DNA of 64,000 bases, taken from positions 320,001 through 384,000 of the forward strand of contig CAVTBU010000006.1 in NCBI GenBank assembly GCA_963733035.1. Reading direction: 5' to 3'. Under the pieces are notes generated by a model. It ran no database searches. It was not told the origin of the DNA and saw nothing but the letters and a program-made list of their open reading frames with translations. The position numbers were made by a program, and so were the translations under genes. Each line of letters begins with the position of its first letter. Position 1 is the stretch's first letter. Source of the stretch: Pirellulales bacterium (GTDB lineage: Bacteria; Planctomycetota; Planctomycetia; Pirellulales; PALSA-1355). Positions 241-51,209 of this stretch are shown one piece after another.

Positions 241-2559
241 ATGACGTGCAAGCAATTCTTGGGTCTGGCCATGCTGCTGATCTTCGCGGGATTTTTAGGC
301 TGCAATTCGAACGCAAAGAAGAGCAATCCGGAGGACGTTGCCCCCGCCGAGCAAAGCACCGAACCTACTGCCGCGGAGGAATTGCCGACGGATCAGGAAT
401 CAGCGCAGGAAAAACCGGCCGATTCGGCCAACGAAGAGCCTGGCACCGGCCAGCCCGCCGCCAAGCCCGACCATTCGCAGGAGCAAACTGGTCCCGAACT
501 GCCCCTGGGCGCGACCGCTCCCGCCAAGGAAGACAATCCGGCGGCGGAGCAAGTGGTCGACCCGGATCCGGCTGCCACGGCCGGCGTCAAGCTGATTCCT
601 CGGCAGGTGCTATTTGGCAATCCCGACAAAGCGTCGGCGCGGCTCAGCCCGGATGGCACACGGTTGAGCTATTTGGCGCCGAGCGACGGCGTGCTCAACG
701 TCTTTGTTGGTCCCGTCGATGATCCCTCGGCGGCCAAGCCAGTGACGGATGACAAGTCGCGCGGGATTCGAACCTACCTCTGGGCCTACGACAACAAGCA
801 CATCCTGTACCTGCAGGATTCCAAGGGCGACGAAGATTGGCACGTGTATAGCGTCGATCTGGACAGTGGCGAAACCAAGGATCTGACGCCGCTCGACAAA
901 GTGGCCGCGCATATCGAGGGGATCAGCGATCGGCAGCCCGGCGAGATCATCGTGGGCTTGAACGACCGCGATCCCCAGTTTCACGATCTGTACCGCGTGA
1001 ACATCGAGACGGGCAATCGCGAGCTGCTGGAAAAGAATACCCAGTTCGCCGGCTACGTCGTTGACGACGATTTCAAGGTTCGCTTCGCGTCAAAGATGAT
1101 GCCCGACGGCAGCATCCAGTATTTCGAGCCGGACGGCAGCGGGGGATGGAAAGAATACATCAACGTCGGTTCGGAAGACACGCTGACCACGTCTCTGGCC
1201 GGCTTCGACAAAACGGGCGACAAGCTCTATCTCACCGACAGCCGCGGTCGCAACACGAGCGCGCTGGTCGAGGTGGATTTGCCAAGCGGCGAGGAGAAAG
1301 TGCTCGCCTCGAACGACAAGGCCGACCTCAGCGGCGTGCTCGCACATCCGACCGAGCGAAACGTTCAGGCCGTGAGTTTCGACTACCTGCGCCCGGAGTG
1401 GGAGGTTCTCGACCCGGCGATCAAGGAAGATCTGGACTATCTCAAGACCGTGGCCGACGGCGAACTACAGGTCGCCAGTCGCACGCTGGACGACAAGAGC
1501 TGGATTGTGGCCTACGTGATGGACGACGGGCCAGTGCGCTACTATCTCTACGATCGACCGAACAAGAAGGCCGCGTTCCTATTTACCAATCGCACGGATC
1601 TAGAAGGGCAGCCGCTGGCCAAAATGCATCCGGTCGTTATCAAATCGCGCGACGGAATGGAACTGGTCAGTTACCTTACCCTTCCTATAGCTGCCGATCC
1701 TGACAACGACGGGAGGCCGAACAAGCCGCTACCCATGATACTGCTGGTACACGGTGGACCGTGGGGTCGCGACGCGTGGGGCTACGACACCGAGCACCAG
1801 TTGCTCGCCAATCGGGGCTATGCGGTCCTCAGTGTCAACTATCGCGGGTCGACCGGTTTGGGAAAGGAGTTTACCAACGCCGGCAACAAGCAATGGGCTG
1901 CCAAAATGCACGACGACCTGATCGACGCGGTCGACTGGGCCGTCGACCAGAAAATCGCTGATCCGGATCGGGTGGCCATCATGGGTGGCAGCTACGGTGG
2001 CTACGCCACGCTCGTCGGCCTGACGTTCACGCCGCAAAAGTTCACTTGTGGTGTCGACATCGTGGGACCGTCGAATCTGTTCACCTTGCTGAGCACGATT
2101 CCGCCTTACTGGGCACCGATGATCCAGATGTTCAAAGATCGCGTCGGCGATCCGACGAGCGAGGAAGGAAAGCAATTGCTCGGCGAGCGTTCGCCGTTGA
2201 ATTTCGTCGAGAAGATCGAGCGACCGCTGCTAATCGCCCAAGGGGCGAACGACCCGCGCGTGAAGCAGTCGGAAGCCGATCAGATCGTGGGCGCCATGAA
2301 AGAGAGGAAGATTCCGCTCACGTACGTGCTGTTTCCGGATGAAGGTCATGGTTTCGCGCGTCCGGAAAACAAACTGGCTTTCTATTCCGTGGCCGAGGCG
2401 TTCTTAGCCAAGCAACTCGGTGGCCGCTACGAGCCGATCGGCGAGGCATTTGAGGGTTCGACCATCACGATTCCCGACGGCGCCGATCAGATCCCCGGAG
2501 TTGCTGACGCATTGCAACAACACCAGGCGACCGCGCCGGCGACTAGCGATCAACCTTGA
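241..2559 (+). CDS. S9 family (prolyl oligopeptidase / dipeptidyl-aminopeptidase-like) serine peptidase, predicted lipoprotein
   Basis: GGSYGG nucleophile, GANDPRV (Asp) and DEGHG (His) triad motifs, preceded by a beta-propeller-like region. ATG 241 follows AAGGA and gives a signal peptide ending FLG-C, then an acidic Pro-rich linker. Confidence 0.9.
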   Translation: MTCKQFLGLAMLLIFAGFLGCNSNAKKSNPEDVAPAEQSTEPTAAEELPTDQESAQEKPADSANEEPGTGQPAAKPDHSQEQTGPELPLGATAPAKEDNPAAEQVVDPDPAATAGVKLIPRQVLFGNPDKASARLSPDGTRLSYLAPSDGVLNVFVGPVDDPSAAKPVTDDKSRGIRTYLWAYDNKHILYLQDSKGDEDWHVYSVDLDSGETKDLTPLDKVAAHIEGISDRQPGEIIVGLNDRDPQFHDLYRVNIETGNRELLEKNTQFAGYVVDDDFKVRFASKMMPDGSIQYFEPDGSGGWKEYINVGSEDTLTTSLAGFDKTGDKLYLTDSRGRNTSALVEVDLPSGEEKVLASNDKADLSGVLAHPTERNVQAVSFDYLRPEWEVLDPAIKEDLDYLKTVADGELQVASRTLDDKSWIVAYVMDDGPVRYYLYDRPNKKAAFLFTNRTDLEGQPLAKMHPVVIKSRDGMELVSYLTLPIAADPDNDGRPNKPLPMILLVHGGPWGRDAWGYDTEHQLLANRGYAVLSVNYRGSTGLGKEFTNAGNKQWAAKMHDDLIDAVDWAVDQKIADPDRVAIMGGSYGGYATLVGLTFTPQKFTCGVDIVGPSNLFTLLSTIPPYWAPMIQMFKDRVGDPTSEEGKQLLGERSPLNFVEKIERPLLIAQGANDPRVKQSEADQIVGAMKERKIPLTYVLFPDEGHGFARPENKLAFYSVAEAFLAKQLGGRYEPIGEAFEGSTITIPDGADQIPGVADALQQHQATAPATSDQP

Positions 2560-2690
2560 CGCGCGTCGCCTTGGGCGAACGACGAACGTGCGTCGCTTCG
2601 GAACTGCTAGCCTGTTGGCACAGGCATCTGCCAGTACAGGCGAGTGACGTATCGTCTGGCAAACTCTACCGGTTACGGAGATTTTTCAAG

Positions 2691-3020
2691 ATGTTCCGTT
2701 ACTTCGTCGATAAGAGGGATTGCACGCATCACCGGATTTTCCCGGGAGTGGATATCTATACGACTGTCTGCCAGCACGTAATGCTATCGCTGGTGGAAAT
2801 GCAGCCTGGGGCCGTGGTCGAGGAGCACAGCCATCCCCATGAACAGATGGGCCTGATGCTCGAAGGCGTAGCCGATTTTACGATTGGCGACCAAAAACAG
2901 CGCGTCGCCGTCGGACAGATGTGGCGCATTCCCGGCGGTGTCGTGCACTAGGTTGTGGCGCTCGATCGGCCGGTCCGCGCGTTGGACGTTTTTAGCCCAC
3001 CGCGTGAAGACTATCAGTGA
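2691..3020 (+). CDS. Cupin-domain protein interrupted by an in-frame TAG at 2949-2951
   Basis: Cupin motifs HSHPHEQ and GQMWRIPGGVVH. After the TAG the same frame reads VVALDRPVRALDVFSPPREDYQ*, a typical cupin C-terminus. GGAG precedes ATG 2691. Confidence 0.8.
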
Positions 3021-47511: not shown

Positions 47512-47871
47512 CCGCCGGTCCTGCGGTTTTCAGCCGAGACTCTTACCACTGGCGGCATGACGGTCCTGCCCAGCCGCCTTGGTCTCCGCGCTTCGTGACG
47601 GCTGGTCCATTGGCGCATGGCGAGGTGCACGGGCCTACTCTCAACGCAGCCGGCAAGCTTTTCCTATCCTCTTGGCGATACGCTATCTGCGGCCCGAGAA
47701 AGCGGCGTTTCTGGTCAATTCGCTTCGTTCGGCGGGTCGATAGCAGCTTTGCGGAGCCGAAGTGGAGACTAGGCGGCCATTCCCCCCCTCGCGCTGCCCG
47801 CTGAGAAATCGAAGCCCACCTGAGTGTTCCCAAAAACACTCGCACCCGTTTCAATGGATTGGAGAACGGAC

Positions 47872-49350
47872 ATGAAACTCTCGAAGTTGGCACTGGCCAG
47901 CGCCATCGCTGGCCTGCTGTCGGCCGGGACCGCCTACGCCCAGAGCGGAGTGGGGCAACCCTCTTCCGTGCAGCAGACAGCGTTTGAGTACAACAGCTAC
48001 TACGCTCAAGACTACGATGAGCGTGCTGGCGCCAAGGAACGCGGCATTGAAGGCGAAACCGACCCGATGGCTCTCCCGAGTCAACCGGATGTTTCCACCC
48101 CGGAAGCAGAAGAGAGCTTCGGCAACGGTGCCGGAACGCTCTTGAATCCGTGTTGCTGCCTCGGCGACGAATGGCGCATCTTTCAAAACGAATGCCTCGA
48201 CTGTCGCGGCATTACCGTGAACGGCTGGCTCGCGTGGAATCCATACACCTGGAACACCTCGAACCCGGCTGATCGCTTCAACGGCCCGGTCACCTGGACT
48301 GACCGTGCAAACGTCCCGACCGTGAACCAGCTCTATCTGTTCGCCGAAAAGGCGACGGACGGTACTGGTGGCTGGGACTTTGGTTGGCGCATCGACGGTA
48401 TGTACGGCACCGACGCCCGTTTCACGACGGCCTCGGGTTTGGAAACCCGCAGCTACTTCTCCTCGCCGAAGTGGAGCACGCAGCGGTTTTACGGTCCGGC
48501 GTTGCCGCAGTTCTACGTGGAAGGTGCCTACAATGACTTGAAAGTCAAAGTAGGACACTACTACGCACCGGTCGGATACGAAGTTGTGCCGACCACCGGC
48601 AACTTCTTCCCCAACCTACCTTATACCTTCCAATACGGCGAACCGTTTACGTTCACCGGCGTGCAGGCCACTTGGCAGTACTCCGAGAACGTGGCGATCG
48701 GCGGTGGTGCGATGCAAGGTTGGGACAACTTCGACAACTCCAATCCCAACACGGGTTTCAATATTACCTACGTCGAGAACTTCCAAGACGGTGCTTCGCT
48801 GGCCATTACTTCGGTGGCGAGCAATGAATTGACGCAAGCGGGAACCTACCGCAACCGCTATTTGCAAACGAACGTCTATAGCCGGCCGCTCACGCGGATC
48901 AGCGATCGTCTGAATTACGTCGCCCAGAGCGACTTTGGTTACCAGAACGACGCTTTGCTCAACGGTCATGACGCATACTGGTACGGCTTGAACCAATACC
49001 TGTTCTACAAGGTCAGCGACTGCATGACCTACGGTATCCGCGCCGAATGGTTCCGCGACCAGAACGGCTACCGTGTCGGCGGGTTCTTGGGACCAACGAC
49101 GGGCGCCCCGGGGGCTCCCCAGCGTGGTCTCTCGACCAGCCGCTACGGCTATGCCGGCAGCTTCTACGAGGTCACCATCGGTGCCAACTGGAAGTACAGT
49201 GCCAACACCACGGTTCGCCCCTATGTGCGATTCGACTGGTTCAGTGGCAGCACCGATCCGGCGGTCAACCCGACGAACCTGCGGCCCTTCGACGGTGGAT
49301 TTGGCAACAGCCAGACCCTCATCGGCGGCGACATCGTGACGATCTTCTAA
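47872..49350 (+). CDS. Outer-membrane beta-barrel porin, planctomycete BBP2-like
   Basis: Signal peptide, NQLYL, MYGTDARF, LPQFYVE, GYEVV, RAEWFRD, alternating beta pattern and terminal Phe. Confidence 0.8.
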   Translation: MKLSKLALASAIAGLLSAGTAYAQSGVGQPSSVQQTAFEYNSYYAQDYDERAGAKERGIEGETDPMALPSQPDVSTPEAEESFGNGAGTLLNPCCCLGDEWRIFQNECLDCRGITVNGWLAWNPYTWNTSNPADRFNGPVTWTDRANVPTVNQLYLFAEKATDGTGGWDFGWRIDGMYGTDARFTTASGLETRSYFSSPKWSTQRFYGPALPQFYVEGAYNDLKVKVGHYYAPVGYEVVPTTGNFFPNLPYTFQYGEPFTFTGVQATWQYSENVAIGGGAMQGWDNFDNSNPNTGFNITYVENFQDGASLAITSVASNELTQAGTYRNRYLQTNVYSRPLTRISDRLNYVAQSDFGYQNDALLNGHDAYWYGLNQYLFYKVSDCMTYGIRAEWFRDQNGYRVGGFLGPTTGAPGAPQRGLSTSRYGYAGSFYEVTIGANWKYSANTTVRPYVRFDWFSGSTDPAVNPTNLRPFDGGFGNSQTLIGGDIVTIF

Positions 49351-49393: not shown

Positions 49394-49430
49394 AAAGCGG
49401 GGTGGCCGATCTTGGCCACCCCGCTTTTTT
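49394..49430 (+). terminator. Intrinsic terminator after the porin gene, possibly bidirectional
   Basis: 14-bp stem AAAGCGGGGTGGCC / GGCCACCCCGCTTT plus T-run, between convergent genes. Confidence 0.88.
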
Positions 49431-49472
49431 GTTGCGCTGTGAGAGGCTTGCGGCCTCGCTCGAATTGGCAAC

Positions 49473-49862
49473 TTAGTAGTTGCCATTGATTTTCGAGCCG
49501 GCCGAACGGAACCCGTAGGAGCCGATGATTTGCCGGTTGCGCACTGAATTGGGGAAGCCGCCGACGATTGGCGTGCCGAACATTCTGGCTGTGGCCGAAT
49601 TGCCTTCCGCTACGTTGCCATCCGTGTACGAGAAGCTGCGAGTGACACCAGGTTGGTAGTCAATCCACGCATTGCCGTTCCAGACCTTCCAGTTCTTTTG
49701 CTGTGGCATCCAGTACCACCACTGGCCATTGTAGTAGCGATAGTTTGGATCCTTTGCCGCCTGGGTCGTCTTGTTGTCCTTCGATTCATCGGCCCGGGTG
49801 GTGCTCAGGCACACAATCGAAGTCACAGCCACGAGGGCCAACAATACAAAGAGCTTACGCAT
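49473..49862 (-). CDS. Small secreted Trp/Tyr-rich hypothetical protein
   Basis: Signal peptide MRKLFVLLAL..TRA, RYYNGQWWYW..WKVWNG..W segment, AGGAG upstream. Confidence 0.75.
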   Translation of the reverse strand: MRKLFVLLALVAVTSIVCLSTTRADESKDNKTTQAAKDPNYRYYNGQWWYWMPQQKNWKVWNGNAWIDYQPGVTRSFSYTDGNVAEGNSATARMFGTPIVGGFPNSVRNRQIIGSYGFRSAGSKINGNY

Positions 49863-50494
49863 GGTCCCGTTCTCCTGGTTCAAAAGAGATGTCCGCCTTG
49901 GCGCCGATCTCAGCCGACGCTCAAACTTATAGAACCGATAGTGCCGGGAGCGACTTCAAGTTCCGGCCGTTTGCATTGCGATCGCCCGGCCGCCCCCGGA
50001 CATTCATCTACAATTGTAGGCCACCAGGACCGACAAGAAGACCGCTTGTGTCCCTTTTTTGGAAGCATGATTGTTCGAGATTTGGGCATTTTTTGGCCAC
50101 CGGTCTTGGATTTCCAGGTCGCGTCCGCACCCGCGAGCATCGTGACCTCGGTCCCTAAGGCACCCAGATGTTCCCGATAAAATGCCCAATGGCAGATGCA
50201 CGGTGTCAGTGCCCGAGTATCAAGCAAATCCCTACAAATCGGCTGAGTGTGCGACCGGCTGGCTAGCGGTCATGACTGCAAGTTAGGCAGATTCCGCGAT
50301 GCGCATCGGGTGCTACGATGCTTTGCCCAAAGGCAATGCGGTGTATGTCGCGCAGTTGGGCAGAGACGGGGACGCACGCGAGCAGCTAGACCGAATCAAC
50401 CGAGATGTTCCGCGATTCGGTTGTCAACGCAAGTCTTTTGCAATCAGAGAGATGGAGTGTTCGACGGCCTTTTTTCAGAGTGACTTGCAACTCC

Positions 50495-50510
50495 TGGCAC
50501 GGTGATTGCA
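50495..50510 (+). promoter_or_regulatory. Sigma54 (-24/-12) promoter
   Basis: TGGCAC-GGTGA-TTGCA with exact GG-N10-GC spacing, upstream of a P-II gene. Confidence 0.85.
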
Positions 50511-50520
50511 ATTCTCCCCT

Positions 50521-50689
50521 GCCGCACTTGCAACCGCGAGCGTCAACGGGACCTGTGAGCCGGTTTTGCAGCGGTCGCGAGCATTGACAAGACATCGGCG
50601 AAAACTTCGGCTCTTGCCTGGGCCAGAAGGATGCCCCTTTGGCTTGGGTAGGTATCCGCCTAACCTGCCCAAGCCAGGGGCCTTTTTTA
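50521..50689 (+). ncRNA. Candidate sigma54-dependent sRNA or attenuating leader
   Basis: Starts at the predicted sigma54 +1, has two 5' hairpins and ends in a strong intrinsic terminator. No credible ORF. Confidence 0.55.
50633..50688 (+). terminator. Intrinsic terminator between the sigma54 promoter and the P-II gene
   Basis: GCCCC-tt-TGGCTTGGGTAGGT / ACCTGCCCAAGCCA-GGGGC followed by TTTTTT. Confidence 0.85.
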
Positions 50690-50861
50690 TTGGTGCCCCC
50701 GAGTTAATGTGCACTTCGCGTTTTCCTCTCGCGTATCGCCGCACCGCCTCCGCCCCGTCGCTCGTTGCTCCAACCACGTCGTGTCGTTAGAACTAAGCTA
50801 CTAGGAACGCGCAGCCGGGCAGGCGCGCGGGTGGGCCGGTTAGCCTCGGAGAATCAGTTAC

Positions 50862-51209
50862 ATGAGATTGATCATCGCCATCATTCAGCCCACGCGGCTG
50901 GAAGCGGTGAAAGCGGCACTTTCCGAGGTCGAGGTTTTTCGCTTGACCGTAATGGACGTGCAGGGCTTCGGGCGTCAAAAGGGACATACCGAGGTTTACC
51001 GCGGTCATGAGGTGACAGTAAACCTGTTGCGCAAGGTGCAACTGCAGATTGCGGTCAACGAGGAGTTCGTTGAACCGACGATTGGGGCCATCATCAAGGG
51101 AGGACGCACCGGCAAGAGCGGCGAAATTGGCGACGGCAAAATCTTTGTCCTGCCGCTCGACGATTGCATCCGTATTCGCACGGGTGAACGAGGCGGCGAA
51201 GCAATCTAA
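50862..51209 (+). CDS. glnB: P-II nitrogen regulatory protein (GlnB/GlnK family)
   Basis: GFGRQKG, YRG T-loop, K58, GEIGDGKIFV and RIRTGE. Confidence 0.95.
   Translation: MRLIIAIIQPTRLEAVKAALSEVEVFRLTVMDVQGFGRQKGHTEVYRGHEVTVNLLRKVQLQIAVNEEFVEPTIGAIIKGGRTGKSGEIGDGKIFVLPLDDCIRIRTGERGGEAI

Follow-up and report, generated by a model that had tools for sequence, protein, structure and literature searches.

The window analysed here is a 64,000-nt stretch of the genome of a Pirellulales bacterium (GCA_963733035.1, contig CAVTBU010000006.1, forward strand), and all coordinates are positions within it unless a contig is named. Between a gene for a small secreted protein (49473-49883, - strand) and the gene for a P-II family nitrogen regulator lie approximately 980 nt that contain no credible open reading frame (ORF). 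This interval holds a sigma-54-type promoter and, downstream of it, a predicted RNA of ~172 nt that begins near 50521 and ends in a 19-bp terminator hairpin with a U tract (50633-50691). The features of the region are as follows:

50325-50361, + strand: upstream dyad GCCCAAAGG-N-TTGGGC, ~170 nt before the -24 element, a candidate enhancer-binding-protein site
50428-50434, + strand: position-fixed motif CGCAAGT, ~67 nt before the promoter
50495-50510, + strand: sigma-54 promoter TGGCACGGTGATTGCA, with the GG of the -24 element at 50496-97 and the GC of the -12 element at 50508-09
50521-50603, + strand: variable 5' domain of the predicted RNA, structured in the window, which holds hairpin 1 and part of hairpin 2 of the first-pass annotation
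50605-50629, + strand: P1 hairpin, CUUC-GGCUC, loop UUGCCU, GGGCC-A-GAAG
50630-50632, + strand: 3-nt linker GAU between P1 and P2 (GAY in nearly all copies)
50633-50681, + strand: P2 terminator hairpin of 19 bp, interrupted by a UU bulge and capped by the invariant loop AUCCGCCUA (50654-50662)
50682-50691, + strand: U tract CUUUUUUAUU, directly after P2
50765-50794, + strand: P-II promoter-like element (TTGCTC, 17 nt, TAGAACT) between the terminator and P-II
50862-51209, + strand: gene for a P-II family nitrogen regulator of 115 aa, with NCBIfam and Pfam matches

The first-pass annotation had described the -24/-12 promoter as perfect, and the description is borne out. The GG and GC dinucleotides lie 10 nt apart within TGGCAC-N5-TTGCW, as in sigma-54 promoters, and the element at 50495-50510 is the one exact match to this pattern in the 64-kb window, where 0.06 matches are expected and 6 of 100 shuffled sequences contain at least one. 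If the C of the GC dinucleotide (50509) is taken as -12, transcription is predicted to start near 50521. The sigma factor itself is encoded in the genome (rpoN; PF04552 match, 214 bits). The pattern by itself shows little enrichment over the whole genome (18 matches vs 14 for the reversed control), and the promoter call therefore rests on conservation: 41 of the 49 loci that carry the RNA module described below have a same-strand sigma-54 match no more than 700 nt upstream, vs 1 of 49 on the reverse-complement control, and at the remaining eight loci an amt gene lies directly upstream.

Further upstream, the dyad recurs at -159 to -171 in 9 of the 41 promoter-bearing loci, and it may be bound by an enhancer-binding protein. 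The half-site TGCCCAA is common to this dyad and to the module region. CGCAAGT belongs to a motif, YRYAAGT, that is found at -67 to -69 in ~20 of the 41 loci and also before the promoter of the paralogue on contig C6 of the same genome.

The 172-nt RNA has a folding energy of -79.3 kcal/mol (z = -4.05), and none of 200 shuffled sequences was as stable. The hairpin and terminator pairings listed in the first-pass annotation can all be read in the sequence, including those of hairpin 1 (GCCGC/GCGGU, 50521-25 with 50571-75; UGCAA/UUGCA; CCG/CGG) and the CAAGA..UCUUG pairing of hairpin 2 (50588-50616), but the layout of these two hairpins is not conserved beyond near relatives. Moreover, hairpin 2 was drawn with CUUCGGCUC (50605-13) as its 3' arm, a segment that both the minimum-energy and the conserved folds use as the 5' arm of P1. 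The 3' arm of P1 and the bases that follow it form the invariant CCAGAAGGAU. P2 reads GCCCC-UUU-GGCUUGGGUAGGU, then the loop AUCCGCCUA, then ACCUGCCCAAGCC-A-GGGGC (50633-50681), and is followed by CUUUUUUAUU; a G+C-rich hairpin with a U tract is the form of an intrinsic terminator, and termination here is predicted from that form. A simple terminator scan that allowed loops of 3-8 nt missed P2, whose loop has 9 nt.

The earlier view that there is no leader ORF also holds. The ORFs of 94-100 aa that overlap the region are not conserved, and indels of 1-2 nt in the conserved core break their frame, and we reject a coding region on these grounds. A promoter and a terminator of its own, with no coding potential, are the marks of an sRNA gene, and the region is predicted to be one.

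A covarying RNA module of the Pirellulales

A BLAST search with 50440-50700 matched 48 of 61 genomes (60 relatives and the genome itself), and the matches were almost always confined to the counterpart of 50604-50691, at 74-100% identity. Only the 3' 90 nt of the RNA are conserved. The 5' 83 nt vary between genera in both sequence and length (63-140 nt in 21 loci), and in three genera a different structured insert, absent from the window RNA, lies between the promoter and the core. A covariance model built from 45 copies of the module matched 39 of 41 relatives, all 29 high-quality genomes among them; each genome had 1-13 matches, and most had 1-6. None of 150 other genomes of the phylum was matched in a search with stricter filters, in which few candidates were scored. 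The named records that contain the core belong to Lacipirellulaceae and Pirellulales, together with one MAG that carries a Kuenenia label; strains of Aeoliella and Botrimarina are among the named isolates that have it.

The consensus consists of a P1 of 8-9 bp, the 3-nt GAY linker, and P2, in which an asymmetric internal loop separates a base helix (GCCCC/GGGGC) from a 13-bp upper helix. Copies adjacent to P-II have the invariant P2 loop YUCCGCCUA (core UCCGCCU), and CCGCC is present within this loop in all 44 P-II-linked copies. When 76 copies were fitted to the covariance model, 95.4% of the cells in P1 and P2 were paired and both sides had changed in 23 of 25 pairs, a result equalled by none of 500 shuffles. 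Such both-side changes affect 8 of the 9 pairs of P1 and 13 of 13 pairs in the upper helix of P2, which is 99% paired. An independent MAFFT alignment of 45 copies gave both-side changes in 12 of 27 pairs, again with no equal among 500 shuffles. A comparison of homologues, as the first-pass annotation had proposed, finds the module conserved and, measured against shuffled alignments, its two hairpins covarying.

Covarying positions include G-U pairs (e.g., U-G 25, U-A 15 and C-G 3 at one position), which places selection on the RNA of the + strand. Since the G-U pairs and compensatory changes are strand-specific, a DNA operator palindrome was rejected as the main constraint. Neither the window nor any of 14 related loci matched Rfam 15 at the gathering threshold, and for the window this extended to E values up to 10; the scan suggested in the first-pass annotation assigns the module to no known family, and like that annotation it does not recognise the glnA glutamine riboswitch here. 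The Rfam near-misses were terminator-like sRNAs only.

A P-II orthologue lies downstream of the module at 30 of 30 family loci and at 14 of 17 order-level loci, and for one additional copy the gene downstream is a P-II paralogue with 43% identity. At least five T residues occur in the 10 nt after P2 in 41 of the 44 P-II-linked copies, vs 12 of 30 other copies.

Copies away from P-II and complementarity to amt leaders

Two extra copies of the module are present in this genome. The one at C7:554063-554152 is placed 80 nt downstream of an amt gene with a sigma-54 promoter, and the one at C6:393555-393645 lies 415 nt after another sigma-54 promoter and faces a convergent phosphofructokinase gene. 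Across genomes, 13 of 26 copies not linked to P-II (22 loci) directly follow an Amt gene, and several (up to half) have no downstream gene on the same strand. Of 11 amt genes that end in a module, nine also show a sigma-54 match in the scanned part of their upstream sequence. The non-P-II copies display the UCCGCCU motif in the loop of P1 (CCGC is found there in 20 of 30), and their P2 loop is free to vary. In the genome designated G043, the interval between amt and P-II is taken up by ~15 tandem P2-type hairpins that repeat every 97 nt; the stems of this array covary, and every loop is ACCGCCUGG.

In the leaders of the sigma-54-type amt genes, the Shine-Dalgarno sequence is preceded, at a distance of 3-9 nt, by a box, GUCCUUCUG. 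The box is the exact complement of CAGAAGGAC in the module and matches the CAGAAGGAY stretch of the P1 3' arm and linker. It matches CAGARGGAC in all 10 amt genes for which both leader and 3' module were read, and in these genes the A/G of the module covaries with the U/C of the box (six A-U and four G-C pairs); the G-C pairs come from genera g3 and g15 only, so the covariation may go back to a single event or to two. Complementarity to the Shine-Dalgarno region is also seen in the P1 loop of the amt 3' module (in one pair, for example, CUCCGCUU with AAGCGGAG), and the order of loop, arm and linker matches that of box, spacer and Shine-Dalgarno sequence in antiparallel. In this genome, the amt 3' module and its own leader can pair through two 9-10-bp helices at -32.0 kcal/mol, compared with -16.7 +/- 3.5 kcal/mol for shuffled sequences, none of 500 of which reaches that value. 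More generally, in 12 of 17 cognate module-leader combinations the genuine leader does better than at least 95 of 100 shuffled versions. The box is uncommon: among 4450 candidate leaders TCCTTCTG is present in four, and the amt leader, which that list missed, contains it too.

The window RNA pairs with the sigma-54-type amt leader at a modest -18.6 kcal/mol, and 107 of 500 shuffles are as stable. In P-II-linked copies the two complementary sites stand in the order opposite to that of the box and Shine-Dalgarno sequence of this leader, so that both sites cannot form one continuous duplex. Furthermore, CAGAAGGAU is buried in P1, and the CAGAAGGAY stretch, which lies within that hairpin, must open before it can pair. 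Two other potential targets were rejected: the 5'UTR GGCGG boxes of this genome's sigma-54-type amt, which same-genus orthologues do not keep, and the P-II leader, where just 4-5 complementary bases were seen by eye.

A second amt clade is represented in this genome at C8:158557, where a P-II gene follows 118 nt later in an amt-glnK operon. Two (A/G)GGCGGA boxes, at -62 and -41, are conserved in the leader of this amt gene, and the two-box pattern occurs in just one of the 4450 candidate leaders of the genome, namely this one. The P2 loop of the window RNA with its closing pair, UCCGCCUAA, forms nine perfect pairs with UUAGGCGGA in the amt-glnK leader (-14.8 kcal/mol; 1 of 500 shuffles as stable). 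Box 2 retains GGCGG in 9 of 11 aligned genomes (10 genera), and matching loop-box pairs are present in distant genomes (UUCCGCCUC with GAGGCGGAA, and AUCCGCCUU with AAGGCGGA). Where the flanks vary the picture is mixed: G043 fits (ACCGCC with GGCGGU), the genome designated G013 does not, and some others fit less well. Because the loop-box pair is conserved on both sides, little covariation is on offer. Genome-wide target scans by loop complements near start codons, by seed-and-extend duplex scoring and by 11-12-mer matches were unspecific and showed no 11-mer enrichment. A conserved seed that faces a conserved target site is what is expected of a trans-acting base-pairing sRNA, and by sequence the UCCGCCU loop with the AGGCGGA boxes, and CAGAAGGAY with the GUCCUUCUG box, are such pairs.

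Possible functions of the module

What might the module do? Its conservation, structure, linkage to sigma-54 promoters and amt genes, and complementarity to amt leaders are computational observations, and we think it somewhat probable that they reflect a stand-alone sigma-54-dependent sRNA of ~172 nt whose conserved 3' module pairs with amt leaders, with P-II not primarily under its control. The sigma-54 promoter would drive the RNA, presumably when nitrogen is limiting and through the action of an enhancer-binding protein, and the RNA would end at its own intrinsic terminator. The working part would be the conserved 3' module (P1, the GAU linker and P2/terminator), which order-wide is also the 3'-end domain of amt mRNAs. 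Its P2 loop, UCCGCCUAA, would pair with the conserved (U)UAGGCGGA boxes in the amt-glnK leader, and its CAGAAGGAY stretch with the GUCCUUCUG box that closely precedes the Shine-Dalgarno sequence in the sigma-54-type amt leader. Such pairing would tune Amt synthesis, and the neighbouring P-II gene would use its own promoter and not be controlled primarily by the RNA. We infer the transcription and termination of the RNA, and likewise its pairing in the cell and the direction of regulation.

More tentatively, it is possible that across the order one module is put to three uses, as the sRNA gene beside a GlnK-like P-II gene, as the amt 3' domain and as arrays of up to ~15 hairpins between amt and P-II, and that it sets the level of Amt through all of them. 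The amt 3' domain could fold back on, or act in trans on, the ribosome-binding region of amt, and loop-loop and linear pairing with the amt-leader boxes would then set the amount of ammonium transporter.

Public sequencing runs gave at best a 0.24 share of coverage of this organism's locus, in a DNA run, and gaps in this coverage are uninformative. For close relatives, metatranscriptome contigs from four studies cover the module at a depth of 2-5. Three of the four RNA-library contigs extend 35-114 nt past the terminator, with DNA carry-over possible, and one contig of 151 nt starts near the relative's predicted +1 and ends in the U tract. The contigs are compatible, as weak evidence, with an sRNA plus some readthrough or DNA carry-over.

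The first-pass annotation had left the choice between a nitrogen-regulated sRNA and a riboswitch or protein-controlled antiterminator in front of P-II. For the latter, the terminator would be conditional: an antiterminator would form between the 5' arm of P2 and the loop and 3' arm of P1, P1 would serve as the anti-antiterminator, and a ligand or protein would decide whether sigma-54 transcripts read through into P-II. We regard such an attenuator as unlikely, although several observations speak for it. The mimicry of the terminator arm reported earlier is real, in that 50613-50630 pairs with the P2 5' arm (50635-50652) at -23.3 kcal/mol vs -12.6 kcal/mol for P1, and until the terminator 3' arm is transcribed this pairing gives the nascent RNA its minimum-energy fold; the finished RNA favours P1 plus P2 (-49.1 kcal/mol). 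Most family-level copies could form a comparable helix (-20 to -26 kcal/mol), and the P1 loop tracks the P2 arm by subfamily (UCCGCCU with GGGCGGG, CUUGCCU with GGGUAGG). Both-side changes affect five antiterminator pairs vs 2.3 expected, which 10 of 500 shuffles reach. The linkage to P-II at 30 of 30 loci and the crossing of the terminator by three of four RNA-library contigs would also fit. However, the antiterminator helix is paired in 86.6% of cells vs 86.0% in column shuffles, and its covariation score is 0.115 vs 0.114 (201 of 500 shuffles as high), so that of the two mutually exclusive helices covariation keeps the terminator, and the antiterminator equals its shuffled controls. Native P1/arm pairs bind much like foreign ones (-18.3 vs -17.6 kcal/mol; median rank 23 of 64). 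In four lineages (loci L039, L042, L054 and L055) changes in P2 were compensated in its 3' arm and not in the mimic (-12.8 to -16.9 kcal/mol), and distant copies, such as L063 and L064, keep the P1 hairpin without complementarity to P2.

The distribution of conservation also argues against an attenuator. A riboswitch would be expected to have a conserved upstream sensor and a less conserved platform, and the reverse was found: the 5' end, where an aptamer would sit, is variable, and P1 and the terminator are conserved. At the 3' ends of amt genes the module has no downstream gene to control. P-II, moreover, has a promoter-like element of its own in 38 of 44 terminator-to-P-II spacers, compared with a mean of 0.5 and a maximum of 4 in shuffled spacers, by patterns that were defined after seeing these spacers. 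TTGCYC-N17-TAGAAMT, the form in this family, accounts for 26 of the 44, and TTGAG-N17-TAnnAT, the form in distant families (TTGAGG-N17-TATAAT among them), for 12 more; judged by this likeness, 50765-50794 may be P-II's own promoter in the window. The RNA also does not look like an ANTAR-regulated leader, in agreement with the first-pass annotation, which had seen no clean dual hexaloop. ANTAR leaders have two hexaloop hairpins with A at loop position 1 and G at position 4, the second of which overlaps the terminator, whereas here P1 has the loop UUGCCU and the terminator, with its loop of 9 nt, is at the same time the second hairpin. A search with PF03861 found no ANTAR protein in this genome, although the control genomes gave no match either. 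Taken together, the null covariation of the antiterminator, the promoter-like element of P-II and the 3'-end paralogues make a P-II riboswitch unlikely and leave the riboswitch or antiterminator reading of the module weakly supported. The stand-alone sRNA is favoured because it fits all of the evidence counted against the switch. Partial, regulated readthrough into P-II may nevertheless occur.

Two further explanations compete with the stand-alone sRNA. It is improbable, in our estimation, that the module is a protein-binding decoy whose CCGCCU loop binds a regulator, with this protein titrated by the sRNA, by the amt 3' modules and by the 15-hairpin array. An invariant loop on a freely covarying stem speaks for a decoy, as do the ~15 tandem hairpins of one genome, all of which show ACCGCCUGG, since sponge RNAs are typically repetitive; the genome of the window also has 14 CsrA-family genes, and Hfq was not found in it. 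However, no candidate protein emerged, and the conserved complementary boxes in the amt leaders explain the loop without one. CsrA sponges have many GGA motifs in loops and linkers, whereas GGA is not enriched in the window RNA (2 in 172 nt) and the linker GGA is lost in several paralogues (e.g., AGAGAGAC and AGUAGAAU). With GGA sparse and unconserved, CsrA is an unlikely partner, and a CsrB/RsmZ-type sponge was rejected on the same grounds. We give even less credence to the idea that the module is an unusually conserved but plain terminator or 3'-stabilising hairpin of nitrogen-regulated transcripts, with incidental complementarity to amt. Its constant position at the 3' end of a transcription unit, the U tracts of the P-II-linked copies and the terminator-like character of the Rfam near-misses are what this idea would predict. 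Yet 18 of the 30 other copies are without a U tract, and identity of 74-100% across the order, an invariant 7-nt loop and a second hairpin held by a fixed 3-nt linker are untypical of a terminator; the amt-leader boxes are themselves conserved, and one of them covaries.

Novelty and relation to known regulatory RNAs

Full-text searches, in the portions of the literature open to them, returned no sRNA or RNA motif of such a kind for Planctomycetes. The nitrogen-linked module is apparently a new, undescribed RNA family of a known kind, namely a sigma-54-dependent riboregulator that is also embedded in 3'UTRs, and post-transcriptional control of nitrogen metabolism appears to be undescribed so far in Planctomycetes. 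The family offers a concrete, testable entry to this subject, with a defined promoter, structure, order-wide covarying alignment and predicted sites in amt leaders. Its design is a less common one, as a single module occurs both as a free-standing sRNA and within the 3' ends of its predicted target mRNAs. If the proposed function is true, the module would be an RNA-level counterpart of the control of AmtB by the GlnK protein, and it would constitute the first riboregulatory circuit described in the phylum.

Several known RNAs resemble the window RNA in part. NrsZ of Pseudomonas is a sigma-54/NtrC-dependent nitrogen sRNA, and it has in common with the window RNA a -24/-12 promoter of its own, a neighbourhood of nitrogen-metabolism genes and, in some genomes, modular repeated hairpin units. 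The window RNA differs in that it comes from another phylum, matches no Rfam family, occurs where Hfq was not found and has other predicted targets. The icaR mRNA of Staphylococcus aureus provides an example of pairing between the 5'UTR and 3'UTR of one mRNA. The amt 3' module is likewise predicted to be complementary to the Shine-Dalgarno region and adjacent box of its own mRNA, but the interaction is a predicted one here, and the module, unlike the icaR element, also exists as a separate sRNA gene. LhrC, CcsR and RoxS/RsaE are sRNAs with C-rich loops, often in tandem, from organisms that lack Hfq. The pyrimidine-rich UCCGCCU loop facing G-rich sites near ribosome-binding sites and the tandem array in one genome are reminiscent of these sRNAs, although the loop motif is another one and lies within the terminator hairpin, so the likeness is a functional analogy and not a matter of membership.

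The glutamine riboswitch (glnA RNA) and the Downstream-peptide motif are located upstream of genes for P-II, glutamine synthetase and ammonium transporters (PMC2864571). The window module occurs next to similar genes but has another architecture, shows no covariance match to E 10 and is also found at 3' ends. Among the planctomycete motifs reported by Weinberg et al. 2010, only Rhodopirellula-1 lies outside Rfam (PMC2864571); by eye, its elements AACAA..GAUGAAC..GUUAUC..ACGUU are unlike the window RNA, and it was rejected as a match. GlnZ is an sRNA of Enterobacteriaceae that is induced by nitrogen limitation and released from the glnA 3'UTR (PMC9731577). The window copy differs from GlnZ in having its own promoter and in its predicted target, which is the amt leader rather than sucA (PMC9731577). 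The two are alike in their association with the 3' end of a nitrogen-assimilation mRNA (PMC9731577), given that half of the other copies of the module are amt 3' domains.

Sites and a secreted-protein gene upstream of the promoter

Three features precede the sigma-54 (-24/-12) promoter at window 50495-50510:

47824-49350: gene for a secreted protein of 508 aa, just upstream of the intergenic region, with two terminator-like hairpins at its end (49400-49485)
50325-50361: dyad GCCCAA-N25-TTGGGC, preceding the promoter by about 170 nt, conserved at 9 of 41 loci
50428-50434: position-fixed YRYAAGT motif at about -68, present at about 20 of 41 loci

The 41 loci are those, out of 49, with a sigma-54 promoter match upstream of the module, i.e., the conserved 3' 90 nt of the RNA (window 50604-50691). 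The half-site of the dyad, TGCCCAA, is present also in the 3' arm of P2, the terminator hairpin of the module. The 508-aa secreted protein had no NCBIfam match, and it may be an outer-membrane protein.

Additional structured elements and arrangements of the module

At eight loci (L033, L035, L041, L043-L046 and L048), the interval that separates the sigma-54 promoter from the core contains a second structured element, which is conserved and lies approximately 45-190 nt upstream of the core. The element is comprised of GUGGAGGGUGGGAAG...GGGGUGUCAUGGGUUGCC...GGCAACCCGUGACACCCC, followed by U's, and displays compensatory changes. BLAST searches indicated that it is single-copy and limited to three genera (g2, g9 and g10); the copy at L048, from genus g16, was judged by eye to be divergent. 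The second element has no match in Rfam and is absent from the Pirellulales genome that supplied the window.

The module itself occurs in other arrangements near genes for ammonium transporters (amt). In the related genome G043, locus L116 carries the following array:

1400-2760, minus strand: tandem array of about 15 hairpin units with a 97-nt period, with an amt gene on one side and the P-II-linked module on the other

Every unit of this array has an extra small hairpin, GUCA-GGCG-UGAC; the loop of this hairpin and the CGCC in the large loop are complementary sequences. At L156 in genome G058, full copies of the module are found both upstream of the amt leader and downstream of the amt gene, and thus the gene is flanked by two modules.

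Observations elsewhere in the Pirellulales genome

Hfq was not found in this genome, and 14 genes of the CsrA family exceed the Pfam cut-off, which is an unusually large complement. To our knowledge, these CsrA proteins have no known partner RNAs.

Outside the window, the sigma-54-driven amt gene on contig C7 (L085; 552505-553984) has an apparent frameshift. One frame holds the start codon, a signal peptide and an Ala/Glu-rich linker (about 132 codons), while the Amt domain begins in a different frame at about 552584. The break could be an assembly error, or the gene could be a pseudogene. Identical leaders recur at C2:3063 and C4:20333, and at C2:184 together with four other places, and these recurrent leaders are probably copies of insertion sequences.
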